From IMG/VR virus record IMGVR_UViG_2698536574_000022: 9,150 nucleotides of DNA; one strand, given 5' to 3'. Shown piece by piece: positions 1,359-8,062 of the stretch; positions within the stretch are counted from its first letter, which is position 1; each line of letters begins with the position of its first letter. The stretch comes from a virus (lineage: Duplodnaviria > Heunggongvirae > Uroviricota > Caudoviricetes). The notes beneath the pieces were generated by a model. That model made no database searches. It was not told the DNA's origin and was given only the letters and a program-made list of their open reading frames with translations. Both the position numbers and the translations under genes were made by a program.

Positions 1359-1514
1359 TTACTCCTCAGGTTCGTAAGCTGTGAAGACAGCGACCTCCGT
1401 CTGGCCGGTTCGGATTCGTACCTCGCAGAGGTCTTTCCTCGTTACCAGTGCCGTCACTATGACGGTTAAACAGATGACGATCAGGGCGATTAACATCGCC
1501 TTTTGCTGCTTCAT
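1359..1514 (-). CDS. hokD: Hok/Gef family type I toxin (small membrane-depolarising peptide)
   Basis: Translation from ATG 1514-1512: MKQQKAMLIALIVICLTVIVTALVTRKDLCEVRIRTGQTEVAVFTAYEPEE (51 aa), with single TM helix and the conserved RKxLCE...E/A..AYE signature of Hok/Gef. It matches my recollection of E. coli HokD/RelF, which is not verified by search. SD AAGGAG 9 nt upstream. The track ORF (1359..1571) adds 19 in-frame N-terminal codons that I consider unlikely to be translated. Confidence 0.85.
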   Translation of the reverse strand: MKQQKAMLIALIVICLTVIVTALVTRKDLCEVRIRTGQTEVAVFTAYEPEE

Positions 1515-2379: not shown

Positions 2380-2552
2380 TCAATTTATTTATCAATCAGT
2401 TACCCGTAAACCTTATCATGGATTCCAATTATCGACAGCTGGGATTTTTACTTTCTTGATCTGCCCCAGGCGAATGACATATCCCCATTAACCAATGTCC
2501 GCTCCTAGCACTTAGTAGACATTAATAGATTGTAAGCGTTCCCGTCATGTAG

Positions 2553-2933
2553 CGGTCACCGATTGGTGATGAATTGAAGCGGATCATTGATGAAAGTCGC
2601 AATAACGTGGCCAGCCCATTTATCGTTCACCAGATCCCGGAACGGCAGGTTAAACGCAGCAAAGAAGTTTCTCATCCCACTCAAGTTGCACCAGACTATT
2701 TGAGTCGGTCGTTTTCAGCTACGCGTGACAAGCTGGGTTTATATGACAAACGGCCGATGGATGAAAGGCCAACCTTTCACGAAATTCGCGCCTTAGCAGC
2801 ACATCTTTTTGATCAGCAGGGCATCGATCCACAAGGACGAATGGCACACAGCGATGCGAAATCAACTAAAATCTACACGCAAAACCATATCGACTGGGTT
2901 GTAGTTCCACATGGAGAAATTAAAGCCAGCTAG
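2553..2933 (+). pseudogene. Lambda-type tyrosine integrase, 3' fragment only (C-terminal ~125 codons)
   Basis: Track ORF 2574..2933 starts at TTG; the frame is open back to a TAG at 2550-2552. C-terminus PTFHEIRALAAHLFDQQGIDPQGRMAHSDAKSTKIYTQNHIDWVVVPHGEIKAS aligns with the lambda Int C-terminus as I recall it (PTFHELRSLSARLYEKQ...LLGHKSDTMASQY...DKIEIK), including the catalytic His and Tyr positions. All three frames upstream of 2550 hit stops within about 20 codons, so the N-terminal ~230 codons of a full integrase are absent. Confidence 0.65.
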
Positions 2934-3074: not shown

Positions 3075-3656
3075 TTATCTTCTTTTCAGTTCCTTGGGAA
3101 GAAAAGCATCTATTTCTTCTTCAGAAAATGTTAAATCTTCTTTGTTTTTTAATGCGTCCTGTGCTTTTTTATAAGCTTCAAATGTTGTACTAGGAGAGCC
3201 TGAATACACTGAATGTAAACTCTCGAGTAACGAATCCCGCTCTGACTGCAATTGCTCGATTGGTTTTTCACCCATTGCTAAGTCTGTAAGCAATGATAAA
3301 TACTTTTCTCGGATTAACCAGATCTCATTTGCAGCCTGCTTATGTTTTTGCGCCAACTCACCAAGGTCATAATCTTTGGTATAAGCGTTAAGAATGAGAA
3401 GCAGTGTTGAAACAACAATCCCAACCCCCGTGCCTACTTCACCCGCGCCGAAAAAAGTTGCTAGAAAGCCTCCAGTAGTTAAGGCGGAGAGAATTATTTG
3501 CCAAAACTTTATAGAAGATAGTCGAGATAGGAGAATGTCTGAGCATTTTTCATGCGTCTTATGTGAGTAAACGACCCGACCATAACACTCTCTGATCTGC
3601 CCTTCTAAAACCCTTCTAGATTCAGGTGTATCCTTAGTCTGGAAATGTTGATCCAT
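3075..3656 (-). CDS. Two-transmembrane effector, SLATT-like (predicted pore-forming or membrane-disrupting partner of the nucleotidyltransferase)
   Basis: Track ORF 3075..3713; preferred start ATG 3656-3654 with GGGAGA about 4 nt upstream, giving MDQHFQTKDTPESRRVLEGQIRECYGRVVYSHKTHEKCSDILLSRLSSIKFWQIILSALTTGGFLATFFGAGEVGTGVGIVVSTLLLILNAYTKDYD... (193 aa). Layout is an N-terminal helix, two hydrophobic segments (WQIILSALTTGGFLATFF and GVGIVVSTLLLILNAY) and a roughly 95-aa helical charged C-terminal region. Overlaps the upstream gene by 23 nt (80 nt if ATG 3713 is used). Confidence 0.7.
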   Translation of the reverse strand: MDQHFQTKDTPESRRVLEGQIRECYGRVVYSHKTHEKCSDILLSRLSSIKFWQIILSALTTGGFLATFFGAGEVGTGVGIVVSTLLLILNAYTKDYDLGELAQKHKQAANEIWLIREKYLSLLTDLAMGEKPIEQLQSERDSLLESLHSVYSGSPSTTFEAYKKAQDALKNKEDLTFSEEEIDAFLPKELKRR

Positions 3657-4515
3657 AAATCTCCCGCCATTTTTGCTTAGCCGACCATTCGCGTTTTGGG
3701 GTCGCCATTTCATGCTCTATAGCTTCGAGTGAAATGTTATAGCACCGTTTTGCTTTATATTGGAAAAGCCCTTTACCATAGACATACTGACCACTTCCTG
3801 GCGCTTTCCAATACTCCTTACTCGTATCTTGATCAGCCATCCATTTGAAGAAATCACGACTCATGAAATCGTAGTAAAGATACGACTTATCTCTATGCGC
3901 CCAATTTTCAATGAATTGATACGCAAGCGTATCAATGAGTAAACCACTTATAGGTACATCCCATTTACGCTTCCAAGCTCTTGCCATTCTACAAAGTTGC
4001 ACCAAATTGTTATTGGTAATGTTATTTCTTAACCTCATTGCAGAAATTTCTGGCTTTGGATTTGTAATCCTCCAACGGCCACCACCGTTCGCATCAGGAA
4101 ATGTGTAACTATCACTAACATTGAGGAAAGCTGGAACGACTTCAAATGTAATTCCATCATTGAACGGTACAAGGATCACTTGACCGTCACCTCTAATACT
4201 AGTGGTAGCATAGGTTTTTTCAATAGATCTCTTAACCGCTTGAAGCAATGCTGACTGCCCATTTCCTAAGTAGCTATTGTATTTTTGATACTCGGAATAT
4301 GGTAGCTGAAAAATCATATCCAGATCGCTCAAGCCTTGCGTAGCTGTGTTCCGACCATATGATCCAACGTAGAGACTATGAGAAGTATCAGAACTGCTAT
4401 CCCAAAAATCCGTATTTAAACGCTTCGTTATATTCCTATATCTAGTTGAAATTGTTCCACCATCTTTTACAGTAAGATTGGAGCAAAATCCGCAAAACCA
4501 CTCAGCTAAACCCAT
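3634..4515 (-). CDS. CD-NTase / SMODS-family nucleotidyltransferase (cGAS/DncV-like; predicted cyclic nucleotide second-messenger synthase)
   Basis: Track ORF 3634..4521 starts at TTG; preferred start ATG 4515-4513 with AAGGA about 8 nt upstream. Translation MGLAEWFCGFCSNLTVKDGGTISTRYRNITKRL...YVGSYGRNTATQGLSDLDMIF...GQVILVPFNDGITFEVVPAF...RWRITNP... shows the Pol-beta-type GS-x11-DxD motif plus a downstream acidic residue in an h-h-F-D-G-hh-EVVP context. About 293 aa, typical of minimal CD-NTases. Assignment is by motif recognition, not a search. Confidence 0.8.
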   Translation of the reverse strand: MGLAEWFCGFCSNLTVKDGGTISTRYRNITKRLNTDFWDSSSDTSHSLYVGSYGRNTATQGLSDLDMIFQLPYSEYQKYNSYLGNGQSALLQAVKRSIEKTYATTSIRGDGQVILVPFNDGITFEVVPAFLNVSDSYTFPDANGGGRWRITNPKPEISAMRLRNNITNNNLVQLCRMARAWKRKWDVPISGLLIDTLAYQFIENWAHRDKSYLYYDFMSRDFFKWMADQDTSKEYWKAPGSGQYVYGKGLFQYKAKRCYNISLEAIEHEMATPKREWSAKQKWREIYGSTFPD

Positions 4516-5049: not shown

Positions 5050-5508
5050 TCAATTTACATCTGAACTAATGCACTTTAATCTCGTCACTTCAAAAAAATA
5101 CCGAACATCCCCCTGATAAAACGACAATATCCGCTGCATAACTTCGCTTTTACGACACTCAGTACAAATTATATTATGACGCCTGTCGTAACGACGTATT
5201 TCTCCATCAGGTAATGACCAGATAAGGTCCGGATCAACCGCAGATGGTTTCTTCAGCTTTGCCCTTGAGAGCTTTTTACGGGCATTTTGCCAGTCCTTAC
5301 GCGCCTGTTCAGACGGGAATAACCCGTAACCAGAGTTGTATACATCGCCACTGGCAACCAGCTCTCTGGCCAGAACGCTCATCAGATATCTTGTTGCCCC
5401 AGTTTTAGCTTCCTGTTGTCGTAACGTCTCGCGCCCACTCTGGCGTACGAGTTCAAGAACCTGCCCTTTAATTTTTTCCCGCTCTTCTTGTGTAAAAACT
5501 TTTGCCAC
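5050..5508 (-). CDS. Hypothetical prophage protein (152 aa), distal gene of the replication-side operon
   Basis: Track ORF with GTG start at 5508-5506 preceded by consensus AGGAGG (rc of 5513-5518). Translation (M)AKVFTQEEREKIKGQVLELVRQSGRETLRQQ... No Walker motif (not a DnaC/P-type helicase loader) and no domain I can assign. Confidence 0.6.
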   Translation of the reverse strand: MAKVFTQEEREKIKGQVLELVRQSGRETLRQQEAKTGATRYLMSVLARELVASGDVYNSGYGLFPSEQARKDWQNARKKLSRAKLKKPSAVDPDLIWSLPDGEIRRYDRRHNIICTECRKSEVMQRILSFYQGDVRYFFEVTRLKCISSDVN

Positions 5509-5548: not shown

Positions 5549-6136
5549 TTACCCCCTGAAGCCCGGTGGAATTTCGGTATCCGGTTCAGAAATATGATTC
5601 ACACAACGCTGGTTGTTCGTACCGCTTACCGGGAGCAACCAGGGGTTTTCAAAATTCCGGTCCGGTCCAAAAAACGTCGTCGCTCGCTGAACAAATTCCG
5701 TTCCCGTTTTCCCGGTAGCCGCCAGGTATCTTGCGTAACGCCTCACACCATCCAGCATGGCCTCTGGTGGCACCCCCTCGCGTAATCTGGCCTTCCAGGC
5801 ACTGAAAGCGGATTTCTTCGGGTTTGCCCCAGCACGCAACGGGTATTCCCGCCAGACCTGTTCGAACACATCCGGATAATCTACTCGCCCCACAGGCTGC
5901 CCGGTGTTTTCCGGGACTACCCGATCGGCTTCCCGCTGAATGGCGGAATCGGCTTCAGGCTGCTGCAGTTGGTGTGATTGCTCCGGCCTTGCGGTCATCA
6001 CCTGCTGCACAGCGCCCGAATCGGCTTTCAGCGCATACGCTGAATCGGCTTCCGGTGTCGTGCCTGCTGGCTGACCAGGATTGACGGTCTGAACATCCCC
6101 TGCCTGGTTCGTGGCGTTTTTTACGCCATGGACCAT
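5549..6136 (-). CDS. Replication-associated protein: low-complexity linker plus conserved C-terminal domain
   Basis: Track ORF 5549..6223 begins at TTG; first ATG is 6136-6134 (MVHGVKNATNQ...). Pro/Gln/Ala/Thr-rich linker, then DYPDVFEQVWREYPLRAGANPKKSAFSAWKARLREGVPPEAMLDGVRRYARYLAATGKTGTEFVQRATTFFGPDRNFENPWLLP, which I recognise as a phage replication-protein type of domain (memory, unverified). Its 5' end overlaps the upstream ORF in another frame, so it may be the C-terminal part of a frameshifted single initiator gene. Confidence 0.55.
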   Translation of the reverse strand: MVHGVKNATNQAGDVQTVNPGQPAGTTPEADSAYALKADSGAVQQVMTARPEQSHQLQQPEADSAIQREADRVVPENTGQPVGRVDYPDVFEQVWREYPLRAGANPKKSAFSAWKARLREGVPPEAMLDGVRRYARYLAATGKTGTEFVQRATTFFGPDRNFENPWLLPVSGTNNQRCVNHISEPDTEIPPGFRG

Positions 6137-6609
6137 AGTGTTTTGATCTTCTTGATCTGTATCTTTATCTGTATCTTTATCTGTCGTGACATGTGCGTGA
6201 CATTTCGTGACGCGCCGTGACAATCGCCATTTTGTTCCCGCTTTCTTTCCCTCTCTCGCTGCGCCCTCTTGCGCTCTGCAGGAGATTTTGCGGTTTGCGA
6301 AATATTGCCGTTGTCCTCTTTAAGCACCTGGCGTTTTTCCCATCCAGTGATTAAATCACCATCAAGTACCCGCCCCTGCATCGTCTGCAAAATTGAATCA
6401 ATTACCTCTTCTGTCACGTCGAGCGCACTTGCCAAATCTTCTGTCGTGACATCAATGTGACCTCGCGTGACATTTCGTGACGCGCTCACCAGGAGGTGGA
6501 TATACACTGCCATCACTGTTGCAATTGGCTGCCCTGACACCCTGGCAATTGTTCGCCACTTAGGGTCATTTGGCATGTCATGCCATAATCTGAGCCAAGC
6601 GTTAGCCAT
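6121..6609 (-). CDS. Replication initiator / replisome-organizer N-terminal domain protein (lambda O-like role); contains the iteron arrays
   Basis: Track ORF 6121..6615 starts at GTG; preferred ATG 6609-6607 with GAGGTG 3-4 nt upstream. N-terminus MANAWLRLWHDMPNDPKWRTIARVSGQPIATVMAVYIHLLVSAS resembles phage replisome-organizer N-terminal domains. The gene body contains two arrays of four phased GTGAC repeats, as the lambda O gene contains ori. Confidence 0.65.
   Translation of the reverse strand: MANAWLRLWHDMPNDPKWRTIARVSGQPIATVMAVYIHLLVSASRNVTRGHIDVTTEDLASALDVTEEVIDSILQTMQGRVLDGDLITGWEKRQVLKEDNGNISQTAKSPAERKRAQRERERKREQNGDCHGASRNVTHMSRQIKIQIKIQIKKIKTLWSMA
6155..6184. repeat. Tandem 12-bp repeat (ATCTGTATCTTT x 2.5) in an AT-rich stretch with two GATC sites
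   Basis: Direct reading: ATCTGTATCTTT at 6155-6166 and 6167-6178, then partial ATCTGT; GATC at 6145-6148 and 6154-6157. Encodes IKIQIKIQIK in one minus frame and TDKDTDKDTD in the overlapping frame. Confidence 0.8.
6186..6221. repeat. Iteron-like array A: four GTGAC motifs at 10-11 bp phasing
   Basis: GTGAC at 6186, 6197, 6207 and 6217, immediately adjacent to the AT-rich tandem repeat. The block CTGTCGTGACAT...GCGTGACATTTCGTGACGCGC (6181-6215) is duplicated at 6441-6485. Confidence 0.6.
6446..6481. repeat. Iteron-like array B: four GTGAC motifs at 10-11 bp phasing
   Basis: GTGAC at 6446, 6457, 6467 and 6477, plus an inverted copy (GTCAC) at 6414-6418. A near-duplicate of array A lying about 260 bp away inside the same gene. 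Confidence 0.6.
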
Positions 6610-6680: not shown

Positions 6681-7106
6681 TCAATGTACTGCCACAGCAT
6701 TTCCTGCCGGGCCACCACGGTTCATCTGATTGAAACCGGCGATTGCCACTGCGACAAAATCATCAGCGTCTCTCACCAGTCGCTCCCGCGTCTCCACCAG
6801 CTCCCGAAAATAAGCTGAACTGTGGCTGCGCATTCTGGCCACCAGCAAAGGTGGCCTTGCCTTTTCGATCGCTGGTAACAACGCCTGAATTTTTTCAACT
6901 GCATCAGGGGTATCTTTCTCTATCCAGCGGAAAATTTTCTGGGTATTGCGAGCCAGGGCTTCCGGATGGCTGTCGTCGTACAGTTCAGGAAACGTCATAC
7001 CCAACTCAAAATAAGCCTGGGTTATTCCAGCTGCCGGAACTTTTTCGCCATCAGGACGCGCCCAGGCATTCATCGCCATGCGGATGTGTTCATGCTTGAT
7101 TTTCAT
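6681..7106 (-). CDS. YdaT/CII-like prophage regulator (141 aa)
   Basis: Track ORF 6681..7178; preferred start ATG 7106-7104 (MKIKHEHIRMAMNAWARPDGEK...) preceded by GGGGGG 5 nt upstream. It sits immediately after the Cro-like gene, in the cII position. Family name is from memory. Confidence 0.55.
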   Translation of the reverse strand: MKIKHEHIRMAMNAWARPDGEKVPAAGITQAYFELGMTFPELYDDSHPEALARNTQKIFRWIEKDTPDAVEKIQALLPAIEKARPPLLVARMRSHSSAYFRELVETRERLVRDADDFVAVAIAGFNQMNRGGPAGNAVAVH

Positions 7107-7332
7107 GAATCCCCCCTTGGTTAGAAGGCGGATTATGATCAGAACCGGGAATGACAACCGTCGGTATGTGTAACTCATATTTGAGCGCCCCGGCAGTGAC
7201 TGCCTGAATTAGCAACGCCCATTTCCACGGAACCTCTTCCCCCCACATGCTGACTGTGGTTTTTGACGTTCCTAGAGCTGCGGCTGTTTTAACAACTCCG
7301 CCAAAATAGCCTAATACTTCTGATTTTTTCAT
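7090..7332 (-). CDS. Cro-like HTH regulator (YdaS-like)
   Basis: Track ORF 7090..7380 starts at TTG; preferred ATG 7332-7330 with GGAG 7 nt upstream. MKKSEVLGYFGGVVKTAAALGTSKTTVSMWGEEVPWKWALLIQAVTAGALKY... has an HTH and is divergent from the CI-like gene across an operator-containing intergenic region. Confidence 0.7.
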   Translation of the reverse strand: MKKSEVLGYFGGVVKTAAALGTSKTTVSMWGEEVPWKWALLIQAVTAGALKYELHIPTVVIPGSDHNPPSNQGGIHENQA

Positions 7333-7360: not shown

Positions 7361-7424
7361 AGTTTAATAATCAAAACCAAAGAAAGTCAAGAAACAAAAC
7401 CATCTGTGTTTTAAAATCAAAACA
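7361..7424. promoter_or_regulatory. oR-like divergent control region: operator palindromes and back-to-back promoters
   Basis: Palindrome TGTTTT-AAAATC-AAAACA at 7407-7424 overlapping the CI-like ATG; degenerate copy AGTTTA-ATAATC-AAAACC at 7361-7378. Minus strand: -35 TTGACT (rc of 7385-7390), 18-nt spacer, -10 TAAACT (rc of 7361-7366) aimed at the Cro-like gene. Plus strand: -10 TAAAAT at 7412-7417 ends 6 nt before the CI-like ATG with no SD, consistent with a leaderless transcript. Confidence 0.55.
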
Positions 7425-8062
7425 TGAGCAAGCAAACAATATCTGAACGCATAACCCAACGTATGCATGCGCTAAACCTGAAAGGCAAAGACCTTGTCAA
7501 TGCCACTGGCGCATCAAAAGGCTCCGTAAGTCAATGGATGAACGGTGGAGGAGCGCCGTCCTCGCGTTACATAAGTTCACTGGCAAAAATATTGAAAGTA
7601 AACGAAAATTGGCTTCTTAATGGAGGAGAGTTAAATACAGGTGATTCGCTTGATCTATCTTTACCGCCGATAAAAACGGTTCCGCTACTATCACTTCAGC
7701 AGGCAGCAAGCTGGAGTGATTATATGAAAAATTCCTCAATAACCTCTTGTGTGCAGCTTGTCGGAGAAATCCCGGCCAATACCTTTGCAGTTGTTCTAGA
7801 GAGTGACAGTATGTCAACATCTGGTGGGGGAGTTTCCATCCCAAATGGTTCAACAGTTTTTGTTGATCCCAATCGAACCGTACAACCAGGAAATATTGTC
7901 CTTGCCTTACCCAAAGGGACCACAACACCTGTCATTCGTAAACTGGAGATAGAAGGGCCGGATATTCTTTTAGTCCCCACGAATCCTCGCTACCCTTCAA
8001 TTATGCTGGATGATCTATCTTGCATATTGGGCGTATGCTTTAAAATTCAACAAGATATTTAA
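7424..8062 (+). CDS. CI-like phage repressor: N-terminal XRE-type HTH plus C-terminal S24 (LexA-like) autopeptidase domain
   Basis: Track ORF, 212 aa. HTH region LKGKDLVNATGASKGSVSQWMNGGGAPSS...NENWLLNGG; C-terminal domain with Ser in AVVLESDSMSTSGGG and Lys in VIRKLEIEG, with the conserved spacing of LexA/cI Ser-Lys dyad proteins. Confidence 0.9.
   Translation: MSKQTISERITQRMHALNLKGKDLVNATGASKGSVSQWMNGGGAPSSRYISSLAKILKVNENWLLNGGELNTGDSLDLSLPPIKTVPLLSLQQAASWSDYMKNSSITSCVQLVGEIPANTFAVVLESDSMSTSGGGVSIPNGSTVFVDPNRTVQPGNIVLALPKGTTTPVIRKLEIEGPDILLVPTNPRYPSIMLDDLSCILGVCFKIQQDI

Follow-up and report, generated by a model that had tools for sequence, protein, structure and literature searches.

The overlapping reading frames ORF-N and ORF-C are very probably the two parts of a single gene, a real and young frameshift pseudogene of a prophage replication initiator that was produced by the loss of one iteron unit. 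In comparison with the intact alleles, the window (the whole stretch of viral DNA analysed here, 9,150 nucleotides long) is short of exactly 10 bp, GTCACGACGA, which corresponds to one iteron unit in the alignment with phage relatives, and of nothing else nearby. Because 10 is not a multiple of three, the gene is broken after codon 142. The original prediction, made from the letters of the window, described two ORFs that overlap in different frames across a 12-bp tandem repeat; its coordinates (6121, 6223 and the ATG at 6136) are correct, both ORFs are on the minus strand, and they are indeed the halves of one initiator, which 7 phage records and the majority of E. coli carriers have as a single 356-aa protein. 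A genuine frameshift leading to a pseudogene, one of the explanations that it had offered, is the best reading: near-identical prophages carry the gene intact, and the indel that sets the window apart from them is not a multiple of three in length.

Organization of the disrupted gene

The disrupted initiator gene and all of its features lie on the minus strand of the window. Its two reading frames and the neighbouring genes are the following.

6121..6609, minus strand: ORF-N, truncated initiator; start ATG 6609 (as annotated in homologues), alternative GTG 6615, stop TAA 6123-6121
5549..6223, minus strand: ORF-C, in the -1 frame relative to ORF-N; first start codon TTG 6223, first ATG 6136, stop 5549
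6681..7106, minus strand: YdaT-family protein, upstream in the same operon, in the position of lambda cII
7090-7332: P22-Cro-like gene
5050..5508, minus strand: DUF977 (LygF) protein, downstream

The ORF-N product has 162 aa, consisting of wild-type residues 1-142 and an out-of-frame 20-aa tail, QIKIQIKIQIKKIKTLWSMA. Its wild-type part covers the N domain (a putative winged-helix), the helix 110-126 and the beginning of the linker. The frame of ORF-C is open already from about 6319, upstream of TTG 6223, and encodes wild-type residues 144-356, that is, the remaining linker, the C-terminal domain and the DnaT-like last 24 aa. ATG 6136 is wild-type Met162, and is used by PGAP as the start of a 195-aa 'hypothetical protein'. 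No P-like or DnaC-like loader gene is found downstream of the initiator, the next gene being DUF977/LygF.

Loss of one iteron unit

The whole 9.15-kb window is 99.8% identical to prophages of E. coli DEC9B and B1_2; apart from the 10-bp gap, it is separated from the DEC9B prophage by 5 SNPs and one 1-bp indel. Within the initiator gene there are 0 SNPs between the window and B1_2 and 1 between the window and DEC9B, and the 356-aa gene is intact in both. Seven phage records that are 96-98% identical likewise carry one 1071-nt ORF of 356 aa. One further record of the gene, phage 204576 (1189 bp), was considered as an iteron variant and rejected, since it has five iterons together with two 1-nt homopolymer deletions that are typical of read errors. 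The split form occurs in 0/7 isolated or induced phage genomes, all of which are intact or have homopolymer errors only.

6183..6190, minus strand: deletion junction, with one surviving GTCACGAC where intact alleles have GTCACGAC-GA-GTCACGAC

The deleted segment is thus bounded by direct repeats, GTCACGAC-GA-GTCACGAC having become GTCACGAC, and the exact position of the lost 10 bp is ambiguous within the 8-bp repeat, any placement across it fitting the alignment. We infer from this layout that replication slippage between the tandem 8-bp repeats caused the loss of the iteron unit. The frame is lost in the array of GTCACG repeats described below and not in the 12-bp repeat, at which B1_2 and three aligned phage alleles have the sequence of the window and DEC9B departs from it by a single SNP at 6154; none of these comparisons reveals an indel. 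The earlier placement of a frameshift at the repeat-containing linker therefore holds as regards the linker, in which the gene is broken, but not as regards the 12-bp repeat, which is intact, the lesion being in the adjoining iteron array. Alignment with intact homologues, which had been proposed as a way of finding one base that restores a single frame, was carried out and leaves no room for a one-base repair, as the difference is 10 bp.

The prediction had also raised the possibility of a sequencing error. It is true that the lesion falls within a tandem repeat, that the exact haplotype of the window is shared with only one other assembly, L013 (GCA_900448875.1), which is possibly the same strain, and that sequencing errors are present in another record of the gene, that of phage 204576. 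A collapse of one unit of this short tandem array during sequencing or assembly is nevertheless the alternative to which we give the least credence. In phage 204576 the errors are indels of 1 nt in homopolymers and not losses of a repeat unit; the whole array is about 50 bp and hence shorter than any read, so that a collapse is not expected; and 4 complete genomes and many independent assemblies, short-read ones included, share the identical junction in differing prophage contexts and integration sites, which makes an artefact unlikely.

Initiator protein: family and structure

The profile of PHROG 3729 'replication initiation protein' is covered in full by the intact homologue, at 356/356 positions (E 1.4e-257), and the ORFs of the window match the same family at positions 1-146 (ORF-N) and 134-356 (ORF-C). 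In relatives, the intact ORF is named replication protein O, primosomal protein I or replisome organiser, and the NCBI name for intact homologues is 'phage replisome organizer'. In a Pfam search with hmmscan, the intact 356-aa homologue had no match to PF04492 Phage_rep_O at E<=10, nor did either half have one at E<=0.01; the intact protein is without any significant Pfam match. The absence of a Phage_rep_O match rules out membership of the lambda O family. The N domain scores 15.4-18.5 bits against TIGR01714 (cut-off 49.8) and 12.8 bits against PF09681 (cut-off 23.3), in both cases below the threshold; these weak alignments span the whole models, over residues 5-125. Neighbouring PHROGs bear the annotation DnaD-like helicase loader or replisome organizer. 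Likeness to DnaT is restricted to the last 24 residues, with 18-19 bits compared with an equivalog cut-off of 201, and PDB chains of DnaT match this C-terminal tail with E values of 0.019-0.068. Beyond this 24-aa tail, no known Pfam family is related to the C-terminal domain.

An AlphaFold model of an intact homologue, based on an alignment of 32 sequences, has a folded part at residues 4-94, a helix at 110-126 and a helical C domain at 246-331, while residues 128-245 are disordered with a pLDDT of about 30. According to this model, the break at residue 142/143 is in a disordered linker between the two domains. Both folded domains are still fully encoded in the window. The original prediction spoke of a lambda-type initiator, which is appropriate for a single two-domain protein with a lambda-O-like mode, but not for its affiliation, as the protein is outside the lambda O family and matches PHROG 3729. 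By analogy, the protein would work like lambda O without being a member of its family.

A candidate origin within the linker coding region

Two arrays of short repeats and one AT-rich stretch occur within the gene.

6445..6481, minus strand: iteron array I, in the N-domain coding region; GTCACG, GTCACG, GTCACA, GTCACG, spacing 10/10/11
6185..6221, minus strand: iteron array II; four GTCACG cores, spacing 10, 10, 11 bp (five cores in intact alleles)
6134..6187, minus strand: AT-rich stretch, containing the 12-bp repeat; 31-35% GC compared with 54% for the gene

The motif GTCACG occurs 11 times in the window where 2.98 occurrences are expected, a count that was reached by 0/200 shuffles. Seven of these cores are on the coding strand of the initiator gene, distributed over the two arrays, and the eighth core is the GTCACA of array I. 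The cores of array II are at 6221, 6211, 6201 and 6190, and the two arrays have identical 19-bp and 13-bp blocks in common. Tandem Repeats Finder detects a 10/11-bp periodic array at 6184-6211, which was absent from the original prediction, and, adjoining it, the 12-bp tandem repeat at 6150-6184 (2.9 copies, 95% matches), which encodes (DKDT)n in the wild-type frame. The AT-rich stretch is the sole one of the gene. It comes after array II, and both are within the segment that encodes the disordered residues 128-245. It is a probable DNA-unwinding region, and we infer that the GTCACG arrays and the AT-rich stretch constitute a lambda-like origin embedded in the coding region of the initiator linker.

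In lambda, the origin lies inside gene O between the parts that code for the two domains, an array of iterons coming first and an AT-rich region after it (PMC6022878). Lambdoid phages differ naturally in how many iterons they have; Stx phages have six, which adds 13 aa to O (PMC7466680). The gene in the window is similar in that iterons and an adjoining AT-rich stretch are placed between the domain-coding parts, where they would have origin activity. It differs from lambda O in its short GTCACG cores with a 10/11-bp period, as opposed to the 18-bp inverted repeats of the lambda iterons, in the presence of two arrays, one of them within the N-domain coding region, and in lacking both a P-like loader gene after the initiator and a Phage_rep_O match. 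Replication-defective r (ori-) mutants of lambda are small deletions in the iteron or AT-rich part of gene O, r98 removing iteron 4 (PMC6022878), and as small deletions in the iteron region they are the nearest precedent for the allele of the window. The sequenced r mutants are, however, in-frame (12, 15 and 24 bp), so that the O protein is still made, whereas the deletion in the window is frameshifting; with a unit of 10/11 bp a frameshift is forced, and origin and initiator are hit together.

The replisome organizer or DnaD-like initiators (PF09681, TIGR01714; SPP1 G38P type) are similar in the NCBI name and in the weak full-length alignments of the N domain, yet differ in that the HMM scores are far below the cut-offs and that the C-terminal domain is unrelated. 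SPP1 G38P binds repeats within its own gene.

Separate expression of two polypeptides

Translational coupling of two separate polypeptides had been put forward as another explanation. A functional initiator in two pieces would require that ORF-C is translated by termination-reinitiation at ATG 6136, and that the pieces cooperate in trans. This ATG sits 13 nt upstream of the ORF-N stop, and start and stop overlap in ATGGTCCATGGCGTAA. Each folded domain is complete, the 195-aa protein starting at ATG 6136 is called by gene callers as well as by PGAP, and PHROGs includes an N-only family (21423) and a C-only family (18526) of 157 aa each. We nonetheless regard a two-polypeptide initiator as very improbable. 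No recognizable ribosome-binding site precedes either ATG 6136 or TTG 6223, and with the protein in two pieces, origin binding would no longer be covalently joined to whatever is recruited by the C domain. Split alleles are rare, are confined to haplotype tips and are missing from the isolated or induced phage genomes, and conservation lends this explanation no support; several of the carriers are prophages in evident decay, with IS1 insertions and with truncations.

Frameshifting during translation

Genes with a programmed -1 frameshift (dnaX, the IS1/IS3 transposases, phage tail G-T) resemble the window in that a second ORF, in the -1 frame, overlaps the first and that A_AAG tetramers occur in the overlap. 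Unlike in those genes, the overlap in the window is without a slippery heptamer or a stimulator, and hardly any homologue has the two-frame layout. A scan of 6319-6121 found no X_XXY_YYZ heptamer in the ORF-N frame, only Z_ZZN tetramers, three of which are A_AAG. The nearest hairpin predicted by RNA folding, at 6135-6105 (inner stem-loop 6128-6112, z = -2.3), is about 28 nt beyond the slip sites, overlaps the ORF-N stop and is found in intact alleles too; it was rejected as a stimulator because of this distance, a structure 5-9 nt downstream being required. The homologous genes have a single frame in the 7 phage records, in B1_2, in DEC9B and in approximately 900 or more complete genomes, and the two-frame layout arose by a deletion without accompanying SNPs. 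Programmed -1 frameshifting, which the original prediction had listed as a third option, is therefore not supported: the overlap contains neither a heptamer nor a stimulator, and the split layout is not conserved.

6163..6178, minus strand: two A_AAG tetramers (6178-6175 and 6166-6163), in the ORF-N frame solely through the deletion

A weaker version of recoding is that the gene is leaky, a -1 slip at one of these two tetramers, or at a third A_AAG at 6244-6241 that predates the deletion, yielding a little 353-aa initiator that is altered only in the tolerant linker. A shift of -1 is exactly the one required, and a slip at either of the new sites would give ...HMSRQIK followed by DTDKDTDQ... 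and then wild-type sequence to the stop. In-frame length changes are naturally tolerated in the linker, including the loss of one DKDT unit. In E. coli, A_AAG is a recognized shift-prone tetramer, through which nearby frameshift mutations have been compensated (PMC5009743). The absence of a heptamer applies here as well, and no Shine-Dalgarno-like sequence was found before the A_AAG sites at 6178 and 6166. The two new sites are followed by AT-rich, unstructured sequence, the hairpin mentioned above being too far off for stimulation. These sites arose by accident from a deletion 0 SNPs old and so cannot have been selected. Slippage at A_AAG is expected to occur at a basal, percent-level yield only. 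We consider leaky expression of this kind very improbable as an account of the locus, and conservation does not speak for it either.

Frequency and recurrence of iteron loss

The 161-bp junction with four iterons is found in identical form in 4/5426 complete E. coli genomes, compared with about 1,650-1,900 complete genomes that carry the gene, these four among them. When a 171-bp query with five iterons, covering the iteron array from its first core, was used, 898 complete genomes were at least 99% identical, these counts being approximate. Homologous prophages that consistently encode the two domains as separate genes, which would have spoken against a disrupted gene, are thus not what is observed, the split form being a rare minority. 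In all four genomes with the junction, PGAP annotates the N part as a 'frameshifted' pseudogene and the remainder as a hypothetical protein that starts at the counterpart of ATG 6136. The exact 162-aa product of ORF-N is present on 65 contigs; in the assembly collection, 105 index blocks contain it. The four-iteron allele occurs in varied prophages and integration sites (potC, ompW, Rac-like elements), short-read Logan assemblies included.

The haplotype of the window in combination with the four-iteron allele is known from two assemblies only, the window itself and L013, which differs from it at only 2 positions. The carriers and their nearest intact alleles are the following.

Window and L013: nearest intact allele B1_2, 0 SNPs apart
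L012 and L020: nearest intact allele of the UTI89 / S88 / ATCC 11775 type, 0 SNPs apart (gap only)
FACU2024 type: nearest intact allele of the CP53 type, 1 SNP apart
L011: nearest intact allele among the complete-genome matches, 3 SNPs apart
L017: nearest intact allele WP5-S17-ESBL-10, 5 SNPs apart

The carrier alleles are up to 17 SNPs apart from each other. A single ancient origin of all four-iteron alleles is disfavoured by these distances, intact alleles being interspersed at 0-5 SNPs, and within-gene recombination could mimic a part of the apparent recurrence. A separate loss of 11 bp, ATGTCACGCAC, is present in CFSAN004176; it corresponds to iteron 3 and is bounded by ATGTCACG repeats. 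Intact proteins also vary in length, in all cases in-frame: in the iteron arrays by +21 bp (array I) and +33 bp (array II), and in the linker repeats by -12 bp (one DKDT unit) and by -24 and -96 bp (AAGCCGAT repeats). The persistence of in-frame variants fits with selection that purges solely the out-of-frame changes. Single-unit iteron losses are recurrent, yet rare and young, as expected of a disabling mutation. Among the carrier prophages, several are plainly in decay, having acquired IS1 insertions and truncations, while some others (L011, L012 and L017) look complete over the 20 kb seen.

Consequences for the prophage

Our preferred explanation is the following. The region encodes the initiator of a lambdoid prophage whose replication origin would lie in the coding sequence of the initiator itself. 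One 10-bp iteron unit has been deleted, probably by slippage between the two GTCACGAC copies that flank GA; this breaks the gene after codon 142 and leaves a 162-aa N product and a C frame without a good start of its own, and the same deletion cuts the putative origin from five iterons to four. Judging from the sequence, the prophage is most likely unable to start its own replication. On the other side, both domains are encoded, both ORFs are open in 15/15 carriers examined, and some carrier prophages look complete; the A_AAG sites or ATG 6136 could permit some full-length or two-piece expression.

In genes of this construction, with origin repeats inside a coding sequence and a period that is not a multiple of three, the gain or loss of one unit destroys the protein; the unit changes that survive in intact genes are of two or three units only (21 or 33 bp). 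Since the 10/11-bp repeats are inside the reading frame, one slippage step would disable the origin in cis and the initiator in trans, which leads us to ask whether single-iteron loss might be a recurrent and selected 'grounding' of these prophages, an idea that we hold to be unlikely. If it were true, a host with a non-excisable prophage would be spared killing by replication initiated within the chromosome, and the A_AAG sites could leave a trickle of full-length initiator, so that the allele would be attenuated and not null. As it stands, the iteron loss is an ordinary recurrent gene-killing deletion and not a recoding device.

The region should be annotated as one disrupted initiator gene, and neither as two genes nor as a recoding site, and the prophage should be scored as probably replication-incompetent. 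The finding opens no long-standing question, and the four-iteron allele is already known to automated annotation, as the PGAP label 'frameshifted' indicates. The number of GTCACG cores is a simple marker to distinguish intact from grounded copies of this replication module, which roughly one complete E. coli genome in three carries.

Repeats and a hairpin within the initiator gene

The replication initiator gene carries further repeats besides the iteron array II (6185-6221), and a small hairpin is found where ORF-N, the N-terminal half of the split gene, terminates:

6445-6481, minus strand: second iteron array (array I), within the part of the gene that encodes the folded N domain
5924-6051, minus strand: second repeat class of the linker coding region, four copies of AAGCCGAT
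6112-6128, minus strand: small hairpin, GGCGU-AAAAA-ACGCC

Because the second iteron array is located inside the N-domain coding sequence, the peptide SRNVT occurs twice in the initiator protein (residues 44-48 and 134-138). The length of array I varies, being 21 bp (two units) longer in P0046, a record with an intact initiator gene. The copies of AAGCCGAT follow one another at spacings of 24, 72 and 24 bp and are translated into EADS(A) motifs; four copies were observed vs 0.32 expected, a number reached in none of 200 shuffles. At these repeats, natural variants with an intact gene are shorter by 24 or 96 bp; the repeats may be protein repeats only or may represent additional DNA sites of the origin.

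The hairpin overlaps the stop codon of ORF-N, and the 111-nt fold around it has a z of -2.3. It is shared with the intact alleles, in which this region is plain coding sequence.

Initiator gene in database records

A very large share of the database entries (protein clusters) for the initiator gene consists of 'partial' proteins cut off by the edge of a contig, which suggests that draft assemblies often break within the multi-copy prophage module carrying this gene. With assembly breaks so frequent, the short 'split' entries would therefore mostly not be due to iteron deletion. The copy in Escherichia phage 204576 (L021, CP025907.1) is unannotated and has two 1-nt homopolymer deletions; read errors in the deposit, rather than biology, are the probable cause.

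Other genes of the prophage

The following genes lie elsewhere in the window:

7424-8062, plus strand: repressor-position ORF, 212 aa
3075-4521, minus strand: SMODS + SLATT gene pair
about 3634-4515, minus strand: SMODS-domain nucleotidyltransferase gene
3075-3656, minus strand: SLATT-domain protein gene
2534-2933, plus strand: frameshifted recombinase remnant
1359-1514, minus strand: hokD type I toxin gene

In the repressor-position ORF, the Peptidase_S24 domain is confined to the C-terminal half, and no Pfam hit is on record for the N-terminal ~100 aa. In E. coli strains DEC9B and B1_2, both carrying near-identical prophages, the NCBI pipeline PGAP calls no more than a 112-aa 'LexA family protein' here; other gene callers predict the full 212 aa.

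The SMODS/SLATT pair is cargo, with the replication module on one side and hok/DUF968/RusA genes on the other, and would appear to be a small defence pair that works through nucleotide signalling. Its SMODS gene has a 14-bp deletion in B1_2. The recombinase remnant and hokD, whose annotations are carried over from DEC9B (99.8% identical), represent further decayed or addiction-type elements in this prophage.
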